Source of the DNA: Nitrospirota bacterium
GTDB lineage: Bacteria > Nitrospirota > UBA9217
Length of the DNA: 64,000 nt
Reading direction: 5' to 3'
Assembly: GCA_963751455.1 (NCBI GenBank)
Contig: CAVVUN010000015.1
Location: 960,001-1,024,000, forward strand
Shown here: positions 4,682-15,550 of the stretch, in pieces
Position numbering within the stretch: position 1 is the stretch's first letter
Layout: each line of letters starts with the position of its first letter
The notes under the pieces: generated by a model
What the model saw: the letters and a program-made list of their open reading frames with translations, nothing else
Told to the model about the DNA's origin: nothing
Databases searched by the model: none
Translations under genes and position numbers: made by a program

Positions 4682-6580
4682 ATGGGCAGGTATGACGATT
4701 TATTTCAGAAGAGCATCAAGGATCCGGCCGGCTTCTGGGAGAACGCTGCGCAGGCCATCACCTGGGATAAAAAATGGGACAAGGTCCTCGACGATTCGAA
4801 CAAGCCGTTTTACCGCTGGTTCACGGACGGGGAGCTGAATACCTGCTTCAACGCACTCGACCGCCATGTCAAGGCCGGCCGCGCGGACCAGGTTGCGCTT
4901 ATCTACGATAGCCCTGTTACGAACACCATCAGGAAGTACAGCTACAAGGAACTGCTCGATCTGGTGTCCCGCTTCGCCGGAGCCCTGAAGGGTCTCGGAG
5001 TCGGGAAGGGAGACACGGTCATAATCTACATGCCGATGATCCCGCAGGCCGCTATAGCGATGCTCGCCTGCGCCCGGCTGGGCGCGGTGCATTCGGTTGT
5101 GTTCGGCGGCTTTGCGCCGCATGAGCTTGCGATCAGGATTGACGACGCCAGGCCGAAAGTAATCGTTACGGCATCGGGCGCGATCGAAGGGAAAAAAATC
5201 CTCGAGTATAAACCGATGCTGGACAAGGCAATTGAAGAGGCTGCGCATAAACCGCAGAAGTGCGTCGTATTTCAGCGGCAATTCGTACAGTCTGCCCTGG
5301 TGAACGGCCGTGACCTGGACTGGGAAGCACTCATGGCAAAAGCCAGTCCCGCCGGTTGTACACCGGTAAAGGCTACAGATCCTCTCTATATCCTGTATAC
5401 CTCCGGCACTACGGGAAAGCCGAAGGGCGTTGTTCGGGATAACGGCGGTCACGCCGTGGCGCTCCGCTGGAGTATGCGGTATATCTACGGGGTCGAGCCG
5501 GGTGACGTATACTGGGCGGCTTCCGATGTCGGATGGGTCGTCGGCCACTCGTATATCGTCTACGCACCGCTTTTCCATGGCTGTACCACGATCCTGTACG
5601 AGGGGAAACCCGTCGGAACCCCGGATGCAGGCGCCTTCTGGCGGGTCATCTCGGAGCACGGCGTGAACGTGCTGTTCACGGCGCCCACGGCCTTCCGGGC
5701 GATCAAGAAGGAAGATCCGAAGGGCGCTTTCATCGGCAAGTACGATCTCTCCCGGTTCAAATATCTTTTTCTTGCCGGCGAACGGCTCGACCCCGATACA
5801 TACCATTGGGCGCATGATCTCCTGAAGAAGCCGGTCATTGACCATTGGTGGCAGACCGAGACAGGCTGGCCCATCACTGCGAACTGCATGGGCATCGAAA
5901 AACATCGCATCAAGCCGGGCTCTTCAACCAAGCCAGTGCCGGGCTACAATGTCACTATCCTGGACACCAACGGCAAACAGATGGATGCCAAGCAGACCGG
6001 CCTCGTTACGATCAAGCTTCCGCTGCCGCCGGGGACACTCCCCACCTTATGGCAGGCGGACCAGCGTTTTCTTGAGTCCTATCTCAAAGTGTATCCAGGC
6101 TACTATTTTACCAGCGACGGAGGATACATCGACGAGGACGGCTACGTCTTTATCATGGGCAGGGTGGATGATGTGATCAACGTTGCGGGCCATCGGCTCT
6201 CCACCGGCGAAATGGAAGAGGTTGTTTCGACCCACAAGGACATCGCGGAATGCGCCGTTATCGGCGTGCACGACAGTCTCAAGGGACAGCTGCCGGTCGG
6301 ACTCTGCGTGCTGAAAGCCGGTGTTAACACGAGCGAAGAGGAGATCAGGAAAGATCTTGCGAGAATGATCCGGGAAACGATCGGGCCCATTGCGGGATAT
6401 AAGGAAACCTGCGTTGTGAAACGGCTTCCCAAGACCCGTTCCGGCAAGATCCTGCGCGGCACAATGAGAAAGATCGCCGACGGTGAGCCCTATACCATGC
6501 CATCGACGATCGACGATCCTGCGACCCTGAACGAGATAGAAGAGGCGCTCAAAAAAGTCGGGTACGCGCGAAAACAGTAG
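4682..6580 (+). CDS. prpE: Propionyl-CoA synthetase-like short-chain acyl-CoA ligase
   Basis: YTSGTTGKPKG AMP-binding motif, VVRDNGGHAVAL, DHWWQTETG, LPKTRSGK; RBS AAGGAGG; substrate is inferred. Confidence 0.85.
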   Translation: MGRYDDLFQKSIKDPAGFWENAAQAITWDKKWDKVLDDSNKPFYRWFTDGELNTCFNALDRHVKAGRADQVALIYDSPVTNTIRKYSYKELLDLVSRFAGALKGLGVGKGDTVIIYMPMIPQAAIAMLACARLGAVHSVVFGGFAPHELAIRIDDARPKVIVTASGAIEGKKILEYKPMLDKAIEEAAHKPQKCVVFQRQFVQSALVNGRDLDWEALMAKASPAGCTPVKATDPLYILYTSGTTGKPKGVVRDNGGHAVALRWSMRYIYGVEPGDVYWAASDVGWVVGHSYIVYAPLFHGCTTILYEGKPVGTPDAGAFWRVISEHGVNVLFTAPTAFRAIKKEDPKGAFIGKYDLSRFKYLFLAGERLDPDTYHWAHDLLKKPVIDHWWQTETGWPITANCMGIEKHRIKPGSSTKPVPGYNVTILDTNGKQMDAKQTGLVTIKLPLPPGTLPTLWQADQRFLESYLKVYPGYYFTSDGGYIDEDGYVFIMGRVDDVINVAGHRLSTGEMEEVVSTHKDIAECAVIGVHDSLKGQLPVGLCVLKAGVNTSEEEIRKDLARMIRETIGPIAGYKETCVVKRLPKTRSGKILRGTMRKIADGEPYTMPSTIDDPATLNEIEEALKKVGYARKQ

Positions 6581-7743: not shown

Positions 7744-8487
7744 ATGGACATTGCAGGAAAAAATGTTGTGATCACCGGTGGCGCACGAGGGCTCGGACGC
7801 GAATACGCACTACAGTTGAGGGCGCTCGGCGCAAAGCCTTTTGTGTTGAATCTCCGTCAGGAGTCTCTCGAAGCATTTAAACGGGAGACGGATATTCCGG
7901 GAAAGGTGGTTGACGTAGGCAACGAAAAAGAGGTCGAAGCGTTTCTCGAAAACTATACGGAAGAATACGGGCCCCCTCATGTCCTGATCAATAATGCCGG
8001 GATCACCGCAGACGGGTTATTTATCAAGAAGAAAGGGGACGAGATCACGAAATTTTCCTATGCGAAGTGGGAAAAAGTCGTCAACGTAAATCTTACCGGT
8101 ACATTTCTTGTCTCACGGGAAGCGGCTTACCACATGGTGAAGCACGGCGTAAAAGGCTTGATTATCAATGTTTCGTCTGTAAACCGCTGCGGCAATATCG
8201 GACAGATAAATTATTCCGCATCCAAGGCTGCAGTCGATGCCATGACCGTTACAATGGCAAAAGAGCTTTGTCAATACGGAATAAGGGTGGCTGCCGTTGC
8301 GCCCGGTTATATAAATACCGAGATGTGCGCTACCATCAGGCAGAATGTGCTGGACAGGATAATCAGCGGTATACCCATGGGCCGTCTCGGTAAACGTGAT
8401 GAAATTTCGGATGCTGTCGAGTTTATTATAAGAAATGACTTTTTTACCGGTCGTGTCCTCGAGTGTGATGGAGGAATGAAAGTTTGA
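7744..8487 (+). CDS. SDR 3-oxoacyl/acetoacetyl-CoA reductase (FabG/PhaB-like), paralog 1
   Basis: TGGARGLG, NNAG, YSASK; clear paralog of 12849-13592; PHA cluster context. Confidence 0.88.
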   Translation: MDIAGKNVVITGGARGLGREYALQLRALGAKPFVLNLRQESLEAFKRETDIPGKVVDVGNEKEVEAFLENYTEEYGPPHVLINNAGITADGLFIKKKGDEITKFSYAKWEKVVNVNLTGTFLVSREAAYHMVKHGVKGLIINVSSVNRCGNIGQINYSASKAAVDAMTVTMAKELCQYGIRVAAVAPGYINTEMCATIRQNVLDRIISGIPMGRLGKRDEISDAVEFIIRNDFFTGRVLECDGGMKV

Positions 8488-8686: not shown

Positions 8687-9133
8687 GTGCCTACCACGGA
8701 AGACATGACAAAACAGATGATGGACATCTTTGCCAATCCTCTTTTCAAAATGGGGTTTTTCGATTATTTTTTGAAAATGCAGCAGGAAGGCATTGAGGCG
8801 GCGCGGAAATTTTGGAGTTCGACTGAGCACAAAAACAGCCCTGTTCCGAATGCGGTCGAAATGTACGAAAAGATGGTCGACTTTTTCATCATCCTGGGGT
8901 TCGTCCCGCGAATAAAATACGAAGAAGCCTTGAAGGAAAACAAAAACCTGAAGGAAGAAAACAAGTTCCTCAGGGACGCCATGCGGGAGCTCCAAACCAA
9001 CCTTTCCAAGGAATGGGGAGAAAAAGGGCAACAGGTCTGGGATGCGAGCATTGACCAGCAGCTTGAGATGCATAAAGAGATCGCAAGGAATTTTTTTGAG
9101 ATGTTCAGGCAGCTGAAAATGGGCAGCCGATAG
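8687..9133 (+). CDS. Hypothetical coiled-coil protein in PHA cluster, candidate granule-associated protein
   Basis: RBS GAGGAGGAG and GTG start; coiled coil; C-terminus WDASIDQQLEMHKEIARNFFEMF matches the C-termini of the next three genes. Confidence 0.75.
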   Translation: MPTTEDMTKQMMDIFANPLFKMGFFDYFLKMQQEGIEAARKFWSSTEHKNSPVPNAVEMYEKMVDFFIILGFVPRIKYEEALKENKNLKEENKFLRDAMRELQTNLSKEWGEKGQQVWDASIDQQLEMHKEIARNFFEMFRQLKMGSR

Positions 9134-9194: not shown

Positions 9195-9578
9195 ATGGAA
9201 AACGTATCCGGCTTTGTTGACGCATGGGTCAAAGCCCAGCAGAAGTCCATCCAGAGCTGGATGGAAGTGCAGAAGGAATTCATCGAGGGTTGGATGAAAG
9301 CACAGAAGACGTTGATGGAAAACTGGATCAAGGCAACACGAAAACTGGAGGAGTCGTTTCCTGCCGGGGGCACCTCCCAAGACAGCGGCAGACGTGATAC
9401 GCTCAATCTGTACGGGACCTGGATAAAGAGCATGGAGGATTCTTCGAAAGCTTTTGCAGACGAATCGGGGAGACTCCAGGAGACGTGGAGAAAGACAGTT
9501 GAAAAACAGATGGACATAAGCTCGGATATGGCGAAGAATTTTTTGGAAATATTCAAAAAAGCAGCTGAGAAGAAATAG
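9195..9578 (+). CDS. Candidate phasin, Trp 11-mer repeat paralog 1
   Basis: Four 11-aa repeats FVDAWVKAQQK/SIQSWMEVQKE/FIEGWMKAQKT/LMENWIKATRK; RBS GGGAG. Confidence 0.75.
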   Translation: MENVSGFVDAWVKAQQKSIQSWMEVQKEFIEGWMKAQKTLMENWIKATRKLEESFPAGGTSQDSGRRDTLNLYGTWIKSMEDSSKAFADESGRLQETWRKTVEKQMDISSDMAKNFLEIFKKAAEKK

Positions 9579-9633
9579 GGGCTCTCCCGGGCGGGAGCAT
9601 CGACAATCACAACCGAGAAGGAGGAAAATTATC

Positions 9634-10029
9634 ATGGAAGAGGCCAGAGCAGAGGCAAAAAAAGGTTTTGAAGAGGCAAAAAAGGGTGTGGACAGGATCG
9701 CGCAGTTATTCGATTCCTGGATGAACACACAGAAGGATGTCATGGAGACCTGGGTGCGGTCGCAGAAGGAGTTCGTGGACACCTGGGTTGATGCAACGAA
9801 AAAACTGCAGGAGTCCTTTCTCAACACAGGCGGCGCCCAGGAAGGAACGATCAATGAGAACCTGAACGTGTACAGATCCTGGCTTACTACGATGTCGAAT
9901 TCTTCAAAAGTGTTCACTGATCAGGCAGGAAGAATTCAGGATACATGGAAGAACGCAGTCGAAAAACAGATGGACGTGAGCAGAGAGATGGTAAACCATT
10001 TCGCGGAGCTTTTCAAAAAGGCCGCCTGA
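9634..10029 (+). CDS. Candidate phasin, Trp 11-mer repeat paralog 2
   Basis: LFDSWMNTQKD/VMETWVRSQKE/FVDTWVDATKK; RBS AAGGAGG. Confidence 0.75.
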   Translation: MEEARAEAKKGFEEAKKGVDRIAQLFDSWMNTQKDVMETWVRSQKEFVDTWVDATKKLQESFLNTGGAQEGTINENLNVYRSWLTTMSNSSKVFTDQAGRIQDTWKNAVEKQMDVSREMVNHFAELFKKAA

Positions 10030-10127
10030 TGAAAGCAGCAAATAGCGGAGCAGGATGCAGCAGGGATTTAAAGTATTTCCTTGCTGCTTGATCCTTGCCC
10101 GCTGGTTGCTCGCACGCAGGAGGAGCG

Positions 10128-10466
10128 ATGGATAAGGTTCTGGAGTTCGTAGACGCATGGATGGGTTCGCAGAAAGAATTCATGGAGAGTTGGGTAAGTT
10201 CGCAGAAGCAATTCATGGATAACTGGACCATGGCTACCAAGATCATCCGTGATTCTTTGCTCCGCGCCGGGGGTCCACCGGAAGGCAAGACAAAAGAGAT
10301 AATGGAGCTGTACCAGTCCGCGCTTATGTCCCTGGTCGATTCGTCCAAAGTCTTGTCACATGAGGCGGAAAAAATTCAGGAGACCTGGAAAAACACGGTC
10401 GAGAAACAAATGGACATGAGCAGGGAGATGGTGAAGAACTTTTCGGAACTCATGAAGGCCTCCTAG
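10128..10466 (+). CDS. Candidate phasin, Trp 11-mer repeat paralog 3
   Basis: FVDAWMGSQKE/FMESWVSSQKQ/FMDNWTMATKI; ATG 10128 after AGGAGGAG. Confidence 0.75.
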   Translation: MDKVLEFVDAWMGSQKEFMESWVSSQKQFMDNWTMATKIIRDSLLRAGGPPEGKTKEIMELYQSALMSLVDSSKVLSHEAEKIQETWKNTVEKQMDMSREMVKNFSELMKAS

Positions 10467-10601: not shown

Positions 10602-11639
10602 ATGGATGACACAAAAAAGTATTTCGACAACTGGTTCAAATCTCAGGGCCGCATTCTTGAAGGCTTGGCCGAGATGACAAGGAAATACCAGGAGTCTTTC
10701 TGGGGCCTCGCGCAGAAGGGAGGACCCCCGAGTTTAACGGTTTTCCCAAATGTGTTTACCTCCTGGTCGAACACGGTTTTGAATGCAATGCGCCAGACAG
10801 GCAGTGGAGATCTATCCGACAGGCTTGGATCAAACGCGTACCTGAATCTTTATGAGATCTGGCTTACTCTCATAAAGGCAATCCAGGAAAAAACCATGGA
10901 TCCGAATGCTTATAAAGATCTGGCAGACTCGACAAAATACAAGGATGTTCTGGACCGGGTCTTCGGTTTTGATCCTGACTTCATCACCCAGGCCGCCGTT
11001 CAGGCCTCAAAGCTGCTGGAAGCATTCGGCGGTTCCACGCAGCACTTTATCAAACCGTGGATAGAGGCGTCCGAGAAAAACATGAAAACGCTTCCTCAGA
11101 TCGTAGAAGGCCGTCCCGAAGCGTATATGTCAGCATATCATAACCTGTTTAATGCGTTTGACGGCACGTTCGGGAAGTTTTTTCATGTTCCCCCAGTCGG
11201 GAAGGACAGGGAGAAAATTGAACTGATTCTAAGGACCCTCGATGACCTTTGTGTTTATCTTGCAAAGTCCATTGAATATCAGCATACGATGTACGTGACC
11301 GGAATGACGGCTCTGGAAAAAGTAATAACGACCATCACGGAAAAAGGCAACAAGGGGGAGGACATCAAGGGATTCGAAGAATTTATCGACGTGTGGGTCG
11401 ATATAAACGAGAAAACCTATTACGAGCTGTTTCAATCACGCGAGTTCTCCAGGATGCAGGGGGAATTGCTTGAGACAGGCCTCAAACTGCGGCAGCATAA
11501 TTTCAAGTTGATGGAGCTCTATTTGTACGATTATCCGATTGCGCTCCGTTCTGAAATGGACGATTTGTATAAAACCATTTACGAATTGAAGAAGAAGGTG
11601 AGAAGCCTCGAAAAACAATTCGGGGAGGTAGCCGCATGA
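10602..11639 (+). CDS. phaE: Class III PHA synthase subunit PhaE
   Basis: PPVGKDRE, WVDINE...FQSREF..MQGELL, PIALRSEMDDLYKTIYELKKKV; overlaps phaC start; ATG 10602 after GAGGAGG. Confidence 0.92.
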   Translation: MDDTKKYFDNWFKSQGRILEGLAEMTRKYQESFWGLAQKGGPPSLTVFPNVFTSWSNTVLNAMRQTGSGDLSDRLGSNAYLNLYEIWLTLIKAIQEKTMDPNAYKDLADSTKYKDVLDRVFGFDPDFITQAAVQASKLLEAFGGSTQHFIKPWIEASEKNMKTLPQIVEGRPEAYMSAYHNLFNAFDGTFGKFFHVPPVGKDREKIELILRTLDDLCVYLAKSIEYQHTMYVTGMTALEKVITTITEKGNKGEDIKGFEEFIDVWVDINEKTYYELFQSREFSRMQGELLETGLKLRQHNFKLMELYLYDYPIALRSEMDDLYKTIYELKKKVRSLEKQFGEVAA

Positions 11640-12820
11640 AATCGCCACTTGACACAACACTCGTGAAAGATTTCGTGGAGCAGCTGGGAGACATGGGGGT
11701 GAAGCTCGCGAAGGGCTCGGAAACCGTCACGGAAATAGATGAAATTGACGTCGGGACAGCCCCCAAAGACATTATCTATGCCGAGGACAAGCTTCAGGTT
11801 TTCCATTACCGGCGGGAAGAGAAGGCAACCTGCACCATACCGGTCCTGATCGTGTATGCACTGGTGAACCGGGAGTACATGCTCGACCTTCAGCCTGACC
11901 GCAGCGTCGTCAGAAATCTTATCCAGCACGGGATTGATGTATATATGATCGATTGGGGCTATCCGACAAAAACGGACATGTACGTAAGCATGGACGATTA
12001 CATAAACGGATATCTGAATAACTGTGTCGACGTTGTCAGAAAAAATTCCGGTGCGGACAAGATCAATATCATGGGGATATGCCAGGGAGGCACCTTCAGC
12101 GGGATTTATTCGTCACTCTATCCCGAGAAGATCAAAAATCTCGTCACGATCGCAGCACCGTTCGATTTTTCAACCAATGACGCTCTTCTCTTCAACTGGT
12201 CAAAGGACATGCCTGCCGACGCCCTTGTCGATACCTACCGGGTCGTTCCAGGAGATTTTCTGAATCAGGGCTTCCTGATGCTGATGCCCTTTACGCTGAA
12301 CGTCAGAAAGTATGTCGATATGCTCGATCTGATAGAAGATAAGGAAAAATTCCTGAACTTCCTCCGGATGGAGAAATGGATCTTTGACAGCCCGGGCCAG
12401 GCAGGGGAGTGCCTGAGGCAGTTTATGAAGGATTTATATCAGGGGAACAAGCTCGTCAAAGGCGAATTGAAGCTGGGCGGTCAAACGGTAAACCTTAAAA
12501 ACATCACCATGCCGCTGTTGAACATCTATGCCACTGCAGACCACCTCGTCCCGCCCAACGCCACAAAGCCGTTGAATGATCTGGTGGGAAGCACCGATAA
12601 ATCACTCTATGAATTCAAAGGCGGCCATATCGGCATCTTTGTAGGGACGAAATCTCAAAAGGAGCTTGCTCCCGCGATAGCGCAGTGGCTTCAGCAGAGA
12701 TGCGGAAATGGGGCGGTAAAGCCTGAGGGGGCGACAAAGCCTGAGAAAGCGGAAACCCCGCCTTCTGCAGGGACCAGAGCCAAGGAGCCCGGACGCCGGA
12801 AACGCCCCGGGAATGAATGA
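11636..12820 (+). CDS. phaC: Class III PHA synthase subunit PhaC
   Basis: VYALVNREYMLDLQPDRS, IDWGYP, lipase box GICQGG, RMEKWIFDSP, DHLVPP, GGHIG. Confidence 0.96.
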   Translation: MKSPLDTTLVKDFVEQLGDMGVKLAKGSETVTEIDEIDVGTAPKDIIYAEDKLQVFHYRREEKATCTIPVLIVYALVNREYMLDLQPDRSVVRNLIQHGIDVYMIDWGYPTKTDMYVSMDDYINGYLNNCVDVVRKNSGADKINIMGICQGGTFSGIYSSLYPEKIKNLVTIAAPFDFSTNDALLFNWSKDMPADALVDTYRVVPGDFLNQGFLMLMPFTLNVRKYVDMLDLIEDKEKFLNFLRMEKWIFDSPGQAGECLRQFMKDLYQGNKLVKGELKLGGQTVNLKNITMPLLNIYATADHLVPPNATKPLNDLVGSTDKSLYEFKGGHIGIFVGTKSQKELAPAIAQWLQQRCGNGAVKPEGATKPEKAETPPSAGTRAKEPGRRKRPGNE

Positions 12821-12848
12821 AGCGGGAGGACGAGAGGAAAATATCATT

Positions 12849-13592
12849 ATGGAATTGACGGGCAAAAAAATCATTGTAACGGGCGGCGCGCGCGGTATGG
12901 GAAAGAGGTTCGCCGTGGATTTAAAGGCCCAGGGCGCCAAACCAACCGTTGTGGATGTGGCTCAGGATACACTTGACGCGCTGAAGAATGAAACCGGCAT
13001 CCCAGGACAGGTTGTCGATGTAAGCAATGAAAAGAGCGTCGAGTCCTTTTTTGAGCAATATACCCGGGAGAACGGCGCTCCGGATGCGTTGATCAACAAT
13101 GCCGGAATCACGGCTGATTCTCTCTTTATCAAGAAAAAAGGGGACGAGGTTACGAAGTTTCCCTTCCCGAACTGGGAAAGGGTGCTCAATGTCAACCTGA
13201 CGGGGGTCTTCCTGTGCGCGCGGGAGGCCGCGTTTCATATGGTGAAGAACAGCGTCAAAGGCGTGATCGTGAATATTTCATCGATCAGCCGGGCAGGGAA
13301 CCTGGGCCAGACAAACTATTCAGCTGCAAAATCCGCAGTTGACTCGATGACCGTAACCTGGGCGAAAGAACTGGCGAGATACGGCATCCGTGTGGGCGCG
13401 ATCGCTCCAGGCTATATCAACACCGAGATGGTTGCCAAGATCAGACCCGAAGTCCTCGAGAAACTCATCCAGAACATTCCGGCAGGGCGGCTCGGCGATA
13501 TGGGCGAAATATCTCTTGCCGTTCAGTTCATCATAAAAAATGACTTCTTTACCGGCAGAATTCTGGAAGTGGACGGCGGCATGAGGATCTGA
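12849..13592 (+). CDS. phaB: Acetoacetyl-CoA reductase-like SDR, paralog 2
   Basis: TGGARGMG, NNAG, GNLGQTNYSAAK; lies between phaC and thiolase; ATG 12849. Confidence 0.8.
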   Translation: MELTGKKIIVTGGARGMGKRFAVDLKAQGAKPTVVDVAQDTLDALKNETGIPGQVVDVSNEKSVESFFEQYTRENGAPDALINNAGITADSLFIKKKGDEVTKFPFPNWERVLNVNLTGVFLCAREAAFHMVKNSVKGVIVNISSISRAGNLGQTNYSAAKSAVDSMTVTWAKELARYGIRVGAIAPGYINTEMVAKIRPEVLEKLIQNIPAGRLGDMGEISLAVQFIIKNDFFTGRILEVDGGMRI

Positions 13593-13735: not shown

Positions 13736-14917
13736 ATGGAAGCGTATATCGTAGGAGGGACCAGGACAGCCATCGGAAGATACGGCGGCGCCCTCGCCTC
13801 CCTGGATGCCATAGATATAGGGTCGGCGGTGATCAAAGAGGTTTTGAAAAGAACCGGGATCCCGAGAGAAGCAGTTCAGGAAGTGATCATGGGGCAGGTA
13901 CTCCAGGCCGGGCTCGGGCAAAACCCGGCCCGCCAGGCAGCTATGCGCGCCGGACTGCCTGAAAACGTGCCGGCCTTCACCGTAAACAAGGTATGCGGCT
14001 CCGGATTGAAGTCTGTTGTGCTCGCGGGTTTAACCATTTCGGCGGGAGAAGAGAACGCTATTATTGCGGGCGGCATGGAGCATATGACAAGCGCGCCTTA
14101 TGTGGTAAAGTCCGCACGGTGGGGGCAGCGTCTGGGAAACGCAGAGATGACGGATACGCTCGTAAACGACGCGCTTTGGGATACTTTCTATGAGTGCCAT
14201 ATGGGAATTACAGCCGAGAACATTGCGACCAAGTACGGCATAAACAGAATCGATCAGGATCAGTTTGCAATGGACTCGCAAAGGAAGACAGAGCAGGCAA
14301 TCAAGGAAGGCAAGTTCAAGGATGAGATTGTTCCCCTGAAAGTCAAACCGGAAAAAGGTCCGGACAAGATTTTTGATACGGACGAGCATCCCCGCTTCGG
14401 TACCACGTGCGAGGCCCTTGGCAAATTGAAGCCGGCGTTCAGGACGGAGGGGACGGTCACCGCGGGCAACGCCTCGGGCATCAACGACGGAGCTGCGGCT
14501 GTGCTGGTTGTTTCCCGGGATAAAATGAAGGAAATGAGCCCTCCCTGGGCTTTTAAATTACGCGCTTGGTCCACAGCCGCAATAGATCCTGCGTTTATGG
14601 GTCTAGGACCCATTGACGCCTGCAAACAGGTCCTTGAACGCGGAAAGCTTGCTGTGAAAGATCTTGATCTGGTCGAGGTCAACGAAGCGTTTGCCGCACA
14701 GTCGATCCAGGTGCACCGGGCGTTGAAATGGGACATGGAAAAGGTGAATGTTCTGGGCGGGGCTATTGCGCTCGGACACCCGGTGGGAGCGAGCGGAACG
14801 AGGATCCTTGTAACCCTTCTTTATGAAATGGTACGGCGCAATGTAAATCTGGGCCTGGCCTCGCTTTGCATCGGCGGCGGGCAGGGCATTGCCGTGATCG
14901 TGGAGCGGGTCAGGTAA
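13736..14917 (+). CDS. phaA: Acetyl-CoA C-acetyltransferase (thiolase)
   Basis: NKVCGSG, NEAFAAQ, GAIALGHPVGASG, CIGGGQG; ATG 13736 after GGGGAGG. Confidence 0.93.
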   Translation: MEAYIVGGTRTAIGRYGGALASLDAIDIGSAVIKEVLKRTGIPREAVQEVIMGQVLQAGLGQNPARQAAMRAGLPENVPAFTVNKVCGSGLKSVVLAGLTISAGEENAIIAGGMEHMTSAPYVVKSARWGQRLGNAEMTDTLVNDALWDTFYECHMGITAENIATKYGINRIDQDQFAMDSQRKTEQAIKEGKFKDEIVPLKVKPEKGPDKIFDTDEHPRFGTTCEALGKLKPAFRTEGTVTAGNASGINDGAAAVLVVSRDKMKEMSPPWAFKLRAWSTAAIDPAFMGLGPIDACKQVLERGKLAVKDLDLVEVNEAFAAQSIQVHRALKWDMEKVNVLGGAIALGHPVGASGTRILVTLLYEMVRRNVNLGLASLCIGGGQGIAVIVERVR

Positions 14918-14988: not shown

Positions 14989-15495
14989 CTAGTCCGTATC
15001 GCAGGGTGGTATGCGTTCTTTAAGTTTTGAAAGGCGTGCCGCTGTAAGTTCGGATTTCAGCACGAAGTCGGTTTTGGCGTAAGCATCTTTTTTCTTCATG
15101 AGCAGCCATTCCTTCCCGGTGCCTTTCGGCAGGCCCTTCATCTGGGCAAGCGCGAATGCTCCTTTCAGTTTTTCCCCCTTGAGCTCGAAAACGAGCTTCC
15201 CTGCTGCAAGCCCCAATACCGGGTCCTGCCCCTCGAGGGGGAGGTACTCTCCGCTATCCCAGATTACGACCGGGCCTGCGCCGTACGATCCTTCGGGGAT
15301 GACGCCTTCGAAGTCTCTATATTCCACTGGATGGTCGGGCACCATGACAGCAAGCCGCTTGTCAGCCGGGTTCAGGGATGGGCCCTTCGGTACGGCCCAT
15401 GATTTAAGAACCCCTTCCATTTCCAGCCGGAAATCATAATGAAGTCTCGAGGCCTTGTGCTCATGTACAACAAAACGCAAATTTCTGGAATTCAC
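14989..15495 (-). CDS. Stand-alone LigD 3'-phosphoesterase domain protein
   Basis: [52 protein letters not shown]; GTG 15495 after AGGAAGGA. Confidence 0.9.
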
Positions 15496-15521
15496 TGTTA
15501 TTTTGTCCTTCCTGAAAATTC

Positions 15522-15550
15522 TTGACAAAGGTTTTGGCAATCTATAATAT
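15522..15550 (+). promoter_or_regulatory. sigma70 promoter for cysS
   Basis: TTGACA (15522) with TATAAT at N15 or TAATAT at N17. Confidence 0.6.

Follow-up and report, generated by a model that had tools for sequence, protein, structure and literature searches.

Tandem Trp-rich proteins encoded before phaE in Nitrospirota: a candidate family of phasin-like proteins related to the N-terminus of PhaE

Three small tandem genes that directly precede phaE in a Nitrospirota genome (assembly GCA_963751455.1, contig CAVVUN010000015.1, positions 960,001 to 1,024,000; this whole stretch of 64,000 nucleotides is called the window) belong, judging from their sequences, to an unnamed family that is found in Nitrospirota, in one Rokubacteria genome and in Methylophilaceae-type contigs. 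The family is linked to the genes of PHA synthesis across three phyla, in a near-exclusive association with phaE-phaC. Profile comparisons indicate that each of the three proteins is a mosaic of its neighbours, with a front of about 70 residues like that of PhaE and a tail of about 40 residues like that of up4, an unnamed gene just upstream. The reading that we favour, with a probability of roughly 0.65, is that the trio encodes phasin-like PHA granule-coat proteins built from PhaE's own amphipathic module.

The cluster is laid out in Table 1. The first-pass annotation of the window had described three paralogs upstream of phaE with four, three and three Trp-bearing 11-residue units, and this proved accurate: three open reading frames on the same strand carry Trp at a spacing of exactly 11, at residues 11/22/33/44 in a, 29/40/51 in b and 11/22/33 in c. 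In gene b the repeats are preceded by a charged N-terminal extension of 18 residues. A purine-rich site precedes the start of each of the three genes and of up4. For gene c the start was placed at an ATG with a GGAGGAG site before it; a longer frame opening with TTG at 10095 lacks such a site. The genome of the window holds no family copies beyond a, b and c, and a scan of the window for promoters and terminators gave counts at the level of shuffled sequence.

Table 1. Genes of the PHA cluster and its flanks, in window coordinates
Feature	Position	Strand	Description
Acyl-CoA synthetase	4682..6580		Top scores are propionate-CoA ligase models, below their cut-offs
Second short-chain reductase paralog	7744..8487	+	NF006072 over cut-off; upstream of up4
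up4 (unnamed gene)	8687..9133	+	148 aa; all-helical, long C-terminal helix
Gene a	9195..9578	+	127 aa; 4 Trp at 11-residue spacing, codons at 9225, 9258, 9291, 9324
Gene b	9634..10029	+	131 aa; 3 Trp at 11-residue spacing, codons at 9718, 9751, 9784
Gene c	10128..10466	+	112 aa, the typical length of the family; 3 Trp at 11-residue spacing, codons at 10158, 10191, 10224
phaE, class III PHA synthase subunit	10602..11639	+	PF09712, 110.9 bits, over cut-off
phaC, class III PHA synthase	11636..12820	+	TIGR01836, 484.8 bits (cut-off 365.3); overlaps the phaE stop
Short-chain reductase	12813..13592	+	NF006072 over cut-off; below PhaB cut-offs
Thiolase	13736..14917	+	TIGR01930 over cut-off
Stand-alone LigD 3'-phosphoesterase domain gene	14989..15540	-	TIGR02777 over cut-off; right after the thiolase

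From their positions, the reductase downstream of phaC is probably the acetoacetyl-CoA reductase of the cluster, and the thiolase probably fills the PhaA role. The two reductases that flank the cluster are paralogs, and both fall under NF006072, not under canonical PhaB; in the metagenome branch described below (locus L084), a canonical acetoacetyl-CoA reductase is used instead. Homologs of the acyl-CoA synthetase lie near the operon in one Nitrospirota locus and in several metagenome loci, and this enzyme could supply propionyl-CoA for a copolymer. Elsewhere in the genome of the window (locus L115, 5765-7039, minus strand) there is a second, divergent PhaC-like hydrolase, which scores 141 bits with TIGR01836, below the cut-off, and has neither phaE nor a family gene adjacent.

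The trio proteins are 40-50% identical in pairs, and the SSK and Q[ED]TW[RK]xxVEKQMD.S motifs reported for them at first pass are indeed common to all three. In 20000 shuffles, the same Trp chain at a spacing of 11 arose 5 times for a, 57 times for b and 30 times for c; at any spacing from 5 to 30 it arose 52, 1267 and 687 times, respectively. By these counts the three-copy chains are modest when taken singly, yet they recur in register across the three genes and their homologs. The repeat unit had been written as hhxxWhxxQKx. The Trp spacing holds, but the pattern is inexact in some units of gene a, and the terminal unit of each protein has T in place of Q, so that the complete W...Q units number 3, 2 and 2. 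The repeat is old at the level of DNA: a single copy at a 33-nt offset survives, with 65% identity, and Tandem Repeats Finder reported no array in the trio DNA.

A word-based search returned 162 homologs, the best 120 of which were all unnamed or 'hypothetical', and a profile search of 1.84 billion representatives returned 109 matches. The nearest named homologs are from Nitrospirota. A distant branch, with 107 matches, carries the source names Methylophilaceae and Methylotenera, and an intermediate group carries that of Candidatus Methylumidiphilus. Individual records with these names are P0406 (in the cluster of P0310), P0354, P0357, P0371 and P0494, which come from Candidatus Methylumidiphilus alinenensis or Methylotenera sp.; in one Methylotenera record, a family gene is next to up4, judging by the locus tags. 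The Rokubacteria record holds two family copies, and one of the six genomes searched from its phylum had a match. A plasmid collection contained no family match, and a weak match to a tape-measure protein in PHROGs (E 0.009) was rejected. PF28174.1 is attached to 4 of the best 120 of the 162 homologs and is absent from all of our Pfam scans; a newer Pfam family may touch this group. A full-text literature search, directed at main texts and largely at journals outside subscription, found no description of the family. In the available portions of PMC8312272 and bioRxiv 10.64898/2025.12.17.695019, PHA granules and phasins are not mentioned for these organisms.

The residue that is conserved throughout the family is Gln, not Trp. 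The Trp of the repeat had been called invariant, a description that is not borne out: among 90 diverse members, Trp11 is kept in 56 and Trp22 in 41, against 85 for Gln15, 86 for Gln26, 88 for Gln84 and 89 for Gln94. The Methylophilaceae-type branch has Leu at the Trp11 and Trp22 positions. The longest Trp chain in 121 close sequences is three in 77, two in 34, one in 8 and four in 2, and the shorter chains mostly reflect substitution of Trp at unchanged length. For this reason a variable number of repeats, also proposed at first pass, cannot be upheld as a family trait; an extra 11-mer occurs in 2 of the 121 close homologs, and the rare changes in unit number are the gain of one unit in gene a and in P0027 and the loss of one in P0112. 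The repeat number is mostly fixed at three, and what varies is the number of gene copies. Larger blocks are multiplied in rare cases as well, with a doubled block of 42 residues at loci L025, L028, L029, L046 and L049 and a triplicated block of 26 residues at L021.

A family tree of limited resolution (79 rows, 127 columns) places each paralog of the window beside its own close relatives elsewhere, at 62%, 84% and 90% identity, arguing that the duplications that produced the trio are not recent. The same tree suggests that tandem expansion also occurred separately in the Rokubacteria record and in the metagenome branch. Members of the Methylophilaceae type have Ala/Lys-rich tails, a phasin-like trait.

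The family genes occur in one to four tandem copies per locus, and phaE comes directly after them in 44 of 46 informative loci; the loci and genomes counted here and below are related and partly redundant, so the figures are descriptive rather than independent and carry no statistical test. Synteny with phaEC had been proposed as a check on the first-pass annotation. Of the 21 genome loci whose family gene is intact, 19 have phaE directly after it; of the 34 metagenome loci in the distant branch, 25 do, and the remaining nine end within 174 nt of the gene. The 21 are drawn from 26 genome loci, with L033-L036 left out because they match through up4 and PhaE only, and L032 left out because its family gene, likewise located before phaE, is split. 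Family copies away from the operon are found at L005, L028 and L029, in genomes that nonetheless have phaC or a phaC fragment; the last two loci are the exceptions among the 21, being lone copies in genomes with phaC or with a phaC fragment at a contig edge. The up4 gene is directly upstream in 16 of the 21 genome loci and in 28 of the 34 metagenome loci.

The family profile was also run over 401 genomes of the phylum. It matched in 25 genomes, 15 with a full-length member (one of them split) and 10 through PhaE and up4 only. Class III phaC was found in 28 of the 401, and these divide into 13 with the family, 10 with up4-phaE-phaC and no family gene, and 5 with other types of cluster. Were the homologs mostly in genomes lacking phaC, a role in PHA storage would be hard to maintain, but 13 of the 15 family-bearing genomes hold class III phaC. 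The two without a phaC match (out of 373 genomes in which no phaC match was found) are 75% and 65% complete, and their family genes sit on short contigs or at contig edges; in one of these genomes the gene lies beside phaE. The distribution of the operon is patchy: of 63 other genomes in the taxonomic family to which the window belongs, 1 has it.

How does the family compare with known phasins? Phasins are a class defined by function, and new phasin families are therefore not rare; Pfam has four of them, according to the accessible part of PMC4117528. The trio had not been recognized as a named phasin family at first pass, and the profile searches agree, in that no trio protein reaches a curated phasin cut-off and no strong match to a characterised family emerged. 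Scores with Phasin_2 (PF09361) are 20.5, 19.4 and 15.3 bits against a cut-off of 24.9, and 98 of 112 close members match it at E<=0.05 (best E 1.2e-4). Membership in Phasin_2 was nonetheless rejected, because the scores stay below the cut-off, none of 31 distant, Methylophilaceae-type members match, and nine unrelated frames of 545-871 aa reach the same level, 20.0-21.7 bits, which is that of noise. TIGR01841 matches 6 of 90 members, with a best E of 0.006, and Phasin (PF05597), PhaP_Bmeg (PF09602) and PHA_gran_rgn (PF09650) match no trio protein up to E 1. The genome of the window has no match to any of these three families or to Phasin_2, and all 28 phaC genomes lack a Phasin_2 match; the coat role is thus otherwise unfilled by known families. 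Language-model neighbours of the trio, at 0.84-0.92, are archaeal clusters of hypothetical or putative phasins and clusters annotated as PhaE-domain, PHB_acc, PhaP_Bmeg and Phasin_2. All of the named neighbours, with scores of 0.84-0.90, are PHA-granule proteins, and they serve as leads only.

Likenesses to particular systems are easier to state. Like phasins as a functional class, the trio proteins are small, amphipathic, mostly alpha-helical by prediction and linked to PHA genes. The PhaP of Aeromonas hydrophila (5IP0) has a similar length (about 110-130 aa) and resembles the predicted plan of the trio, in which a short linker connects two long helices with an apolar and a polar face; in the part of PMC5180188 available, it is described as having Gln within the apolar surface, and the trio too has Gln inside its apolar face. 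The family differs from this PhaP and from Phasin_2 in being Trp-rich in Nitrospirota and in being tied to class III rather than class I synthases. The phaR-phaP-phaE-phaC cluster of Haloferax mediterranei offers a parallel in gene order, since its PhaP has no similarity to other phasins and is encoded directly before phaEC, behind a small regulator gene (as given in the accessible text of PMC9049629). Many relatives of the trio operon also start with a small conserved gene. In the present case, however, the hosts are bacteria and the small upstream gene matches no family, and the likeness to the haloarchaeal proteins is one of description only.

Eleven-residue amphipathic helical repeats are well known from apolipoproteins, perilipins and synucleins, and the trio resembles these in its 11-residue period, continuous amphipathic helix, basic flank and acidic polar face. 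It differs from them in having just three or four units and a Trp/Gln stripe, and in showing no sequence relationship. No Pfam family of these proteins was over its cut-off (ApoLp-III matched 14 of 112 members at E<=0.05, best 0.0018), and PDB sequence searches returned no such chain. Since 11 residues make three turns of any straight helix, the comparison is an analogy.

The trio proteins are predicted to be two-helix hairpins. With an alignment of 112 rows, AlphaFold2 places helices at residues 2-53 and 64-125 of the gene a product (pLDDT 77, pTM 0.52). Structure prediction and helical wheels had been suggested at first pass as checks on the amphipathic helices, and these were borne out: the hydrophobic moment peaks at 99-100.5 degrees in all six trio helices, and none of 2000 shuffles matched these peaks. 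This angle falls between those of 11/3 and 18/5 helices; for helix 1 of gene a the moment is 0.557 at 98-100 degrees, the 11/3 angle, compared with 0.273 at the heptad angle. On the wheel, Trp and Gln occupy the centre of the apolar face, Phe, Met, Val and Ile flank them, Lys runs along one edge and Asp/Glu lie on the far side. The proteins are hydrophilic overall (GRAVY -0.5 to -0.8), have masses of 13-15 kDa, and contain no hydrophobic transmembrane stretch and no enzyme domain.

Comparisons of the models with known structures gave generic helical matches. Foldseek found nothing in the PDB at E<=0.001 for the trio model, and the best VIA-align matches of the trio and up4 models had Z scores of 11.8 and 7.0; the absence of a family from VIA-align results excludes nothing. 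The phasin 5IP0 stood at rank 48 among generic hairpins (Z 8.2, rmsd 5.7, 105 residues aligned, 5% identity). The top rows of a PDB sequence search were engineered viral fusion-core hairpins, which were set aside as composition matches because E exceeded 0.1 for each stretch. A prediction of a four-copy complex of the gene a product gave no answer, with a score of 0.00.

The clearest homology of the family is to the synthase subunit. The first-pass annotation had pointed out that PhaE opens with a similar unit, YFDNWFKSQGR, and the relationship extends well beyond that claim, being true homology over about 65 residues. In hhalign, family residues 1-72 align with residues 1-64 of the operon PhaE (10602-10793 in the window) at 98.6% for whole profiles and 99.6% for cut profiles, and the last 40 or so trio residues align with the up4 tail at 97.6% and 99.4%. 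These comparisons give pairwise E-values, and the profiles of the family, PhaE and up4 were all drawn from the same operons. The alignment with PhaE has a single gap of exactly 11 residues, PhaE having one unit fewer, and the shared features include a W-x3-Q start, a KK.QE.F helix end, a Gly-rich turn and a Y.SW motif. The family profile also retrieves PhaE N-termini from the unbiased library of 1.84 billion representatives. Controls were low: 0.6% for up4 against PhaE, 1.0% for the N-terminal module against the up4 tail, 5.9% for the C-terminal helix against the PhaE N-terminus and 0.3% for the N-terminal module against the PhaE C-terminus. A relationship between the central motif of up4 and the PhaE C-terminus was likewise considered and found unsupported (0.6-0.7%). 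PhaE residues from about 140 to 186 match the module more weakly (92%), and PhaE thus seems to hold a second internal copy. The family proteins are one third the length of PhaE; they lack its conserved middle and C-terminal region, and they end in a helix that PhaE lacks. A PDB sequence search with PhaE found no solved relative. Homology of this kind fixes relatedness only, and the small proteins may have arisen from PhaE or PhaE from them.

The trio proteins probably coat PHA granules. The operon presumably makes PHA, and the coat proteins would be abundant, would be produced along with the synthase and would lie flat on the growing granule with the apolar face on the polyester. The Trp/Phe/Met face would bind the granule, while Lys and Asp/Glu would be turned towards the cytoplasm. 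The conserved Gln in the middle of the apolar face might form hydrogen bonds with ester carbonyls, or it might weaken self-association so that the protein opens onto the granule. Through its own copy of the module, PhaE would attach the synthase to the granule, and tandem duplication of the small genes would raise the dose of coat protein or tune granule size. The family must be dispensable, because 10 of the 28 phaC genomes manage with up4-phaE-phaC and neither a family gene nor a Phasin_2 match. The strongest point against the coat reading follows from those same genomes: up4, which occurs both with and without the family, could be the actual coat protein, with the trio as an add-on. A further point against this reading is that the profile comparisons tie the family most clearly to a synthase subunit, not to a phasin.

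That homology raises the alternative that the trio proteins are accessory synthase subunits, truncated paralogs of PhaE that use the common N-terminal module to assemble with PhaE-PhaC and that determine synthase activity, oligomer state or priming instead of covering the granule in bulk. The direct match to the PhaE N-terminus and the near-constant adjacency to phaE agree with this, and the apparent second copy of the module within PhaE implies that it can serve as a packing unit. However, the conserved regions of PhaE, in its middle and at its C-terminus, are missing from the family (no trio protein matches PF09712 or TIGR01834, and 7 of 112 members match weakly, best E 0.005). The copy number of the family also varies from 0 to 4 while phaE-phaC remains a single pair, a pattern that suits a coat protein acting by dosage better than a stoichiometric subunit. 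We consider the accessory-subunit role unlikely.

A role as partners of up4 seems quite improbable. The shared C-terminal helix would pair with the coiled coil of up4 in a scaffold that tethers or spaces granules, attaching them to the membrane, the nucleoid or other granules, with up4 as the core and the trio as optional adaptors. The homology of the two tails suggests such pairing, as do the position of up4 directly upstream and its retention where the family is missing. In addition, the 200-aa protein P0153 (a cluster of 2) is, as read by eye, a fusion that combines the N-terminal module of the family with a complete up4 sequence. But helices can share an ancestor without binding each other, the fusion comes from two short contigs only, and a partnership with up4 is compatible with a coat role instead of excluding it. 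Finally, amphipathic 11-periodic helices bind many apolar surfaces, and the best structural matches of the trio model are generic hairpins, some of them membrane-binding, but the near-exclusive linkage to phaE-phaC over three phyla and the homology to PhaE make it very improbable that the proteins are general lipid or membrane binders, or chaperone-like proteins, that accompany the operon without binding PHA.

The up4 gene itself belongs to an unnamed family with 420 homologs, frequently mislabelled 'regulator of replication initiation timing' because of a coiled-coil match. It is kept in every layout of this operon, those without the trio included, and its tail is amphipathic (6 of 2000 shuffles reach its moment). 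up4 may be an essential granule protein.

A broader interpretation joins these pieces, and we offer it tentatively, with the odds against it. The trio would represent a phasin lineage derived from the synthase: PhaE would be anchored to the granule by the Trp/Gln helix of its own N-terminus, and free copies of that helix, ending in an up4 tail, would have turned into the coat. The trio, PhaE and up4 would together make up one modular kit for the granule surface, a cassette that has passed among Nitrospirota, Rokubacteria, methylotrophs and a gammaproteobacterial methanotroph. A Trp/Gln stripe at an 11-residue pitch would be a minimal motif for polyester binding, and other unnamed Trp-rich proteins encoded before phaE might have it too.

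What distinguishes this family from other candidate phasins is its clear homology to the PhaE N-terminus. To our knowledge, the attachment of class III synthases to granules is unsettled, and the question is directly testable here because the family provides small free-standing versions of the PhaE module that are easy to express. Natural variants range from two units (PhaE) to three, four and a doubled block, and include the replacement of Trp by Leu. The trio modules could also furnish short polyester-binding tags. The family points to PHA storage in uncultured Nitrospirota and in some Methylophilaceae. Gammaproteobacterial methanotrophs are not known as PHB producers, and a class III PHA cassette in one of them would be notable.

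Several neighbouring observations concern related clusters. A conserved gene of about 115 aa stands before up4 in most related loci (L084, 4166-4507; L002, 2319-2690; L012, 5005-5355); it has no family match and is absent from the genome of the window. Its start resembles what we take to be a ribbon-helix-helix DNA-binding motif, and we regard it as a candidate analogue of PhaR; the genome of the window contains no PhaR N-terminal domain.

Loci L033 and L035 are Candidatus Magnetobacterium records with up4-phaE-phaC and no family gene. The inclusions of Ca. Magnetobacterium are described as sulfur globules and nitrate vacuoles in the accessible part of bioRxiv 10.64898/2025.12.17.695019; some of them might be PHA.

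In other class III clusters of the phylum, a different Trp-rich protein of 160-170 aa, with no Pfam or NCBIfam name, is encoded directly before phaE (L118, 6956-7462, minus strand; L116, 3483-3971, plus strand). It scores 14-19 bits with the family profile, above all 500 shuffles, while the reversed L118 sequence scores 12 bits; by this measure it is possibly a distant relative of the family. A second PHA-type cluster, at L120 (93-726 and 2482-2976) in genome G397, has a pair of helical proteins of about 90 aa that score 9-16 bits with the family profile, a level that 499 of 500 shuffles do not exceed, and the same cluster includes an unnamed open reading frame of 556 aa and a distant relative of up4 (31 bits).
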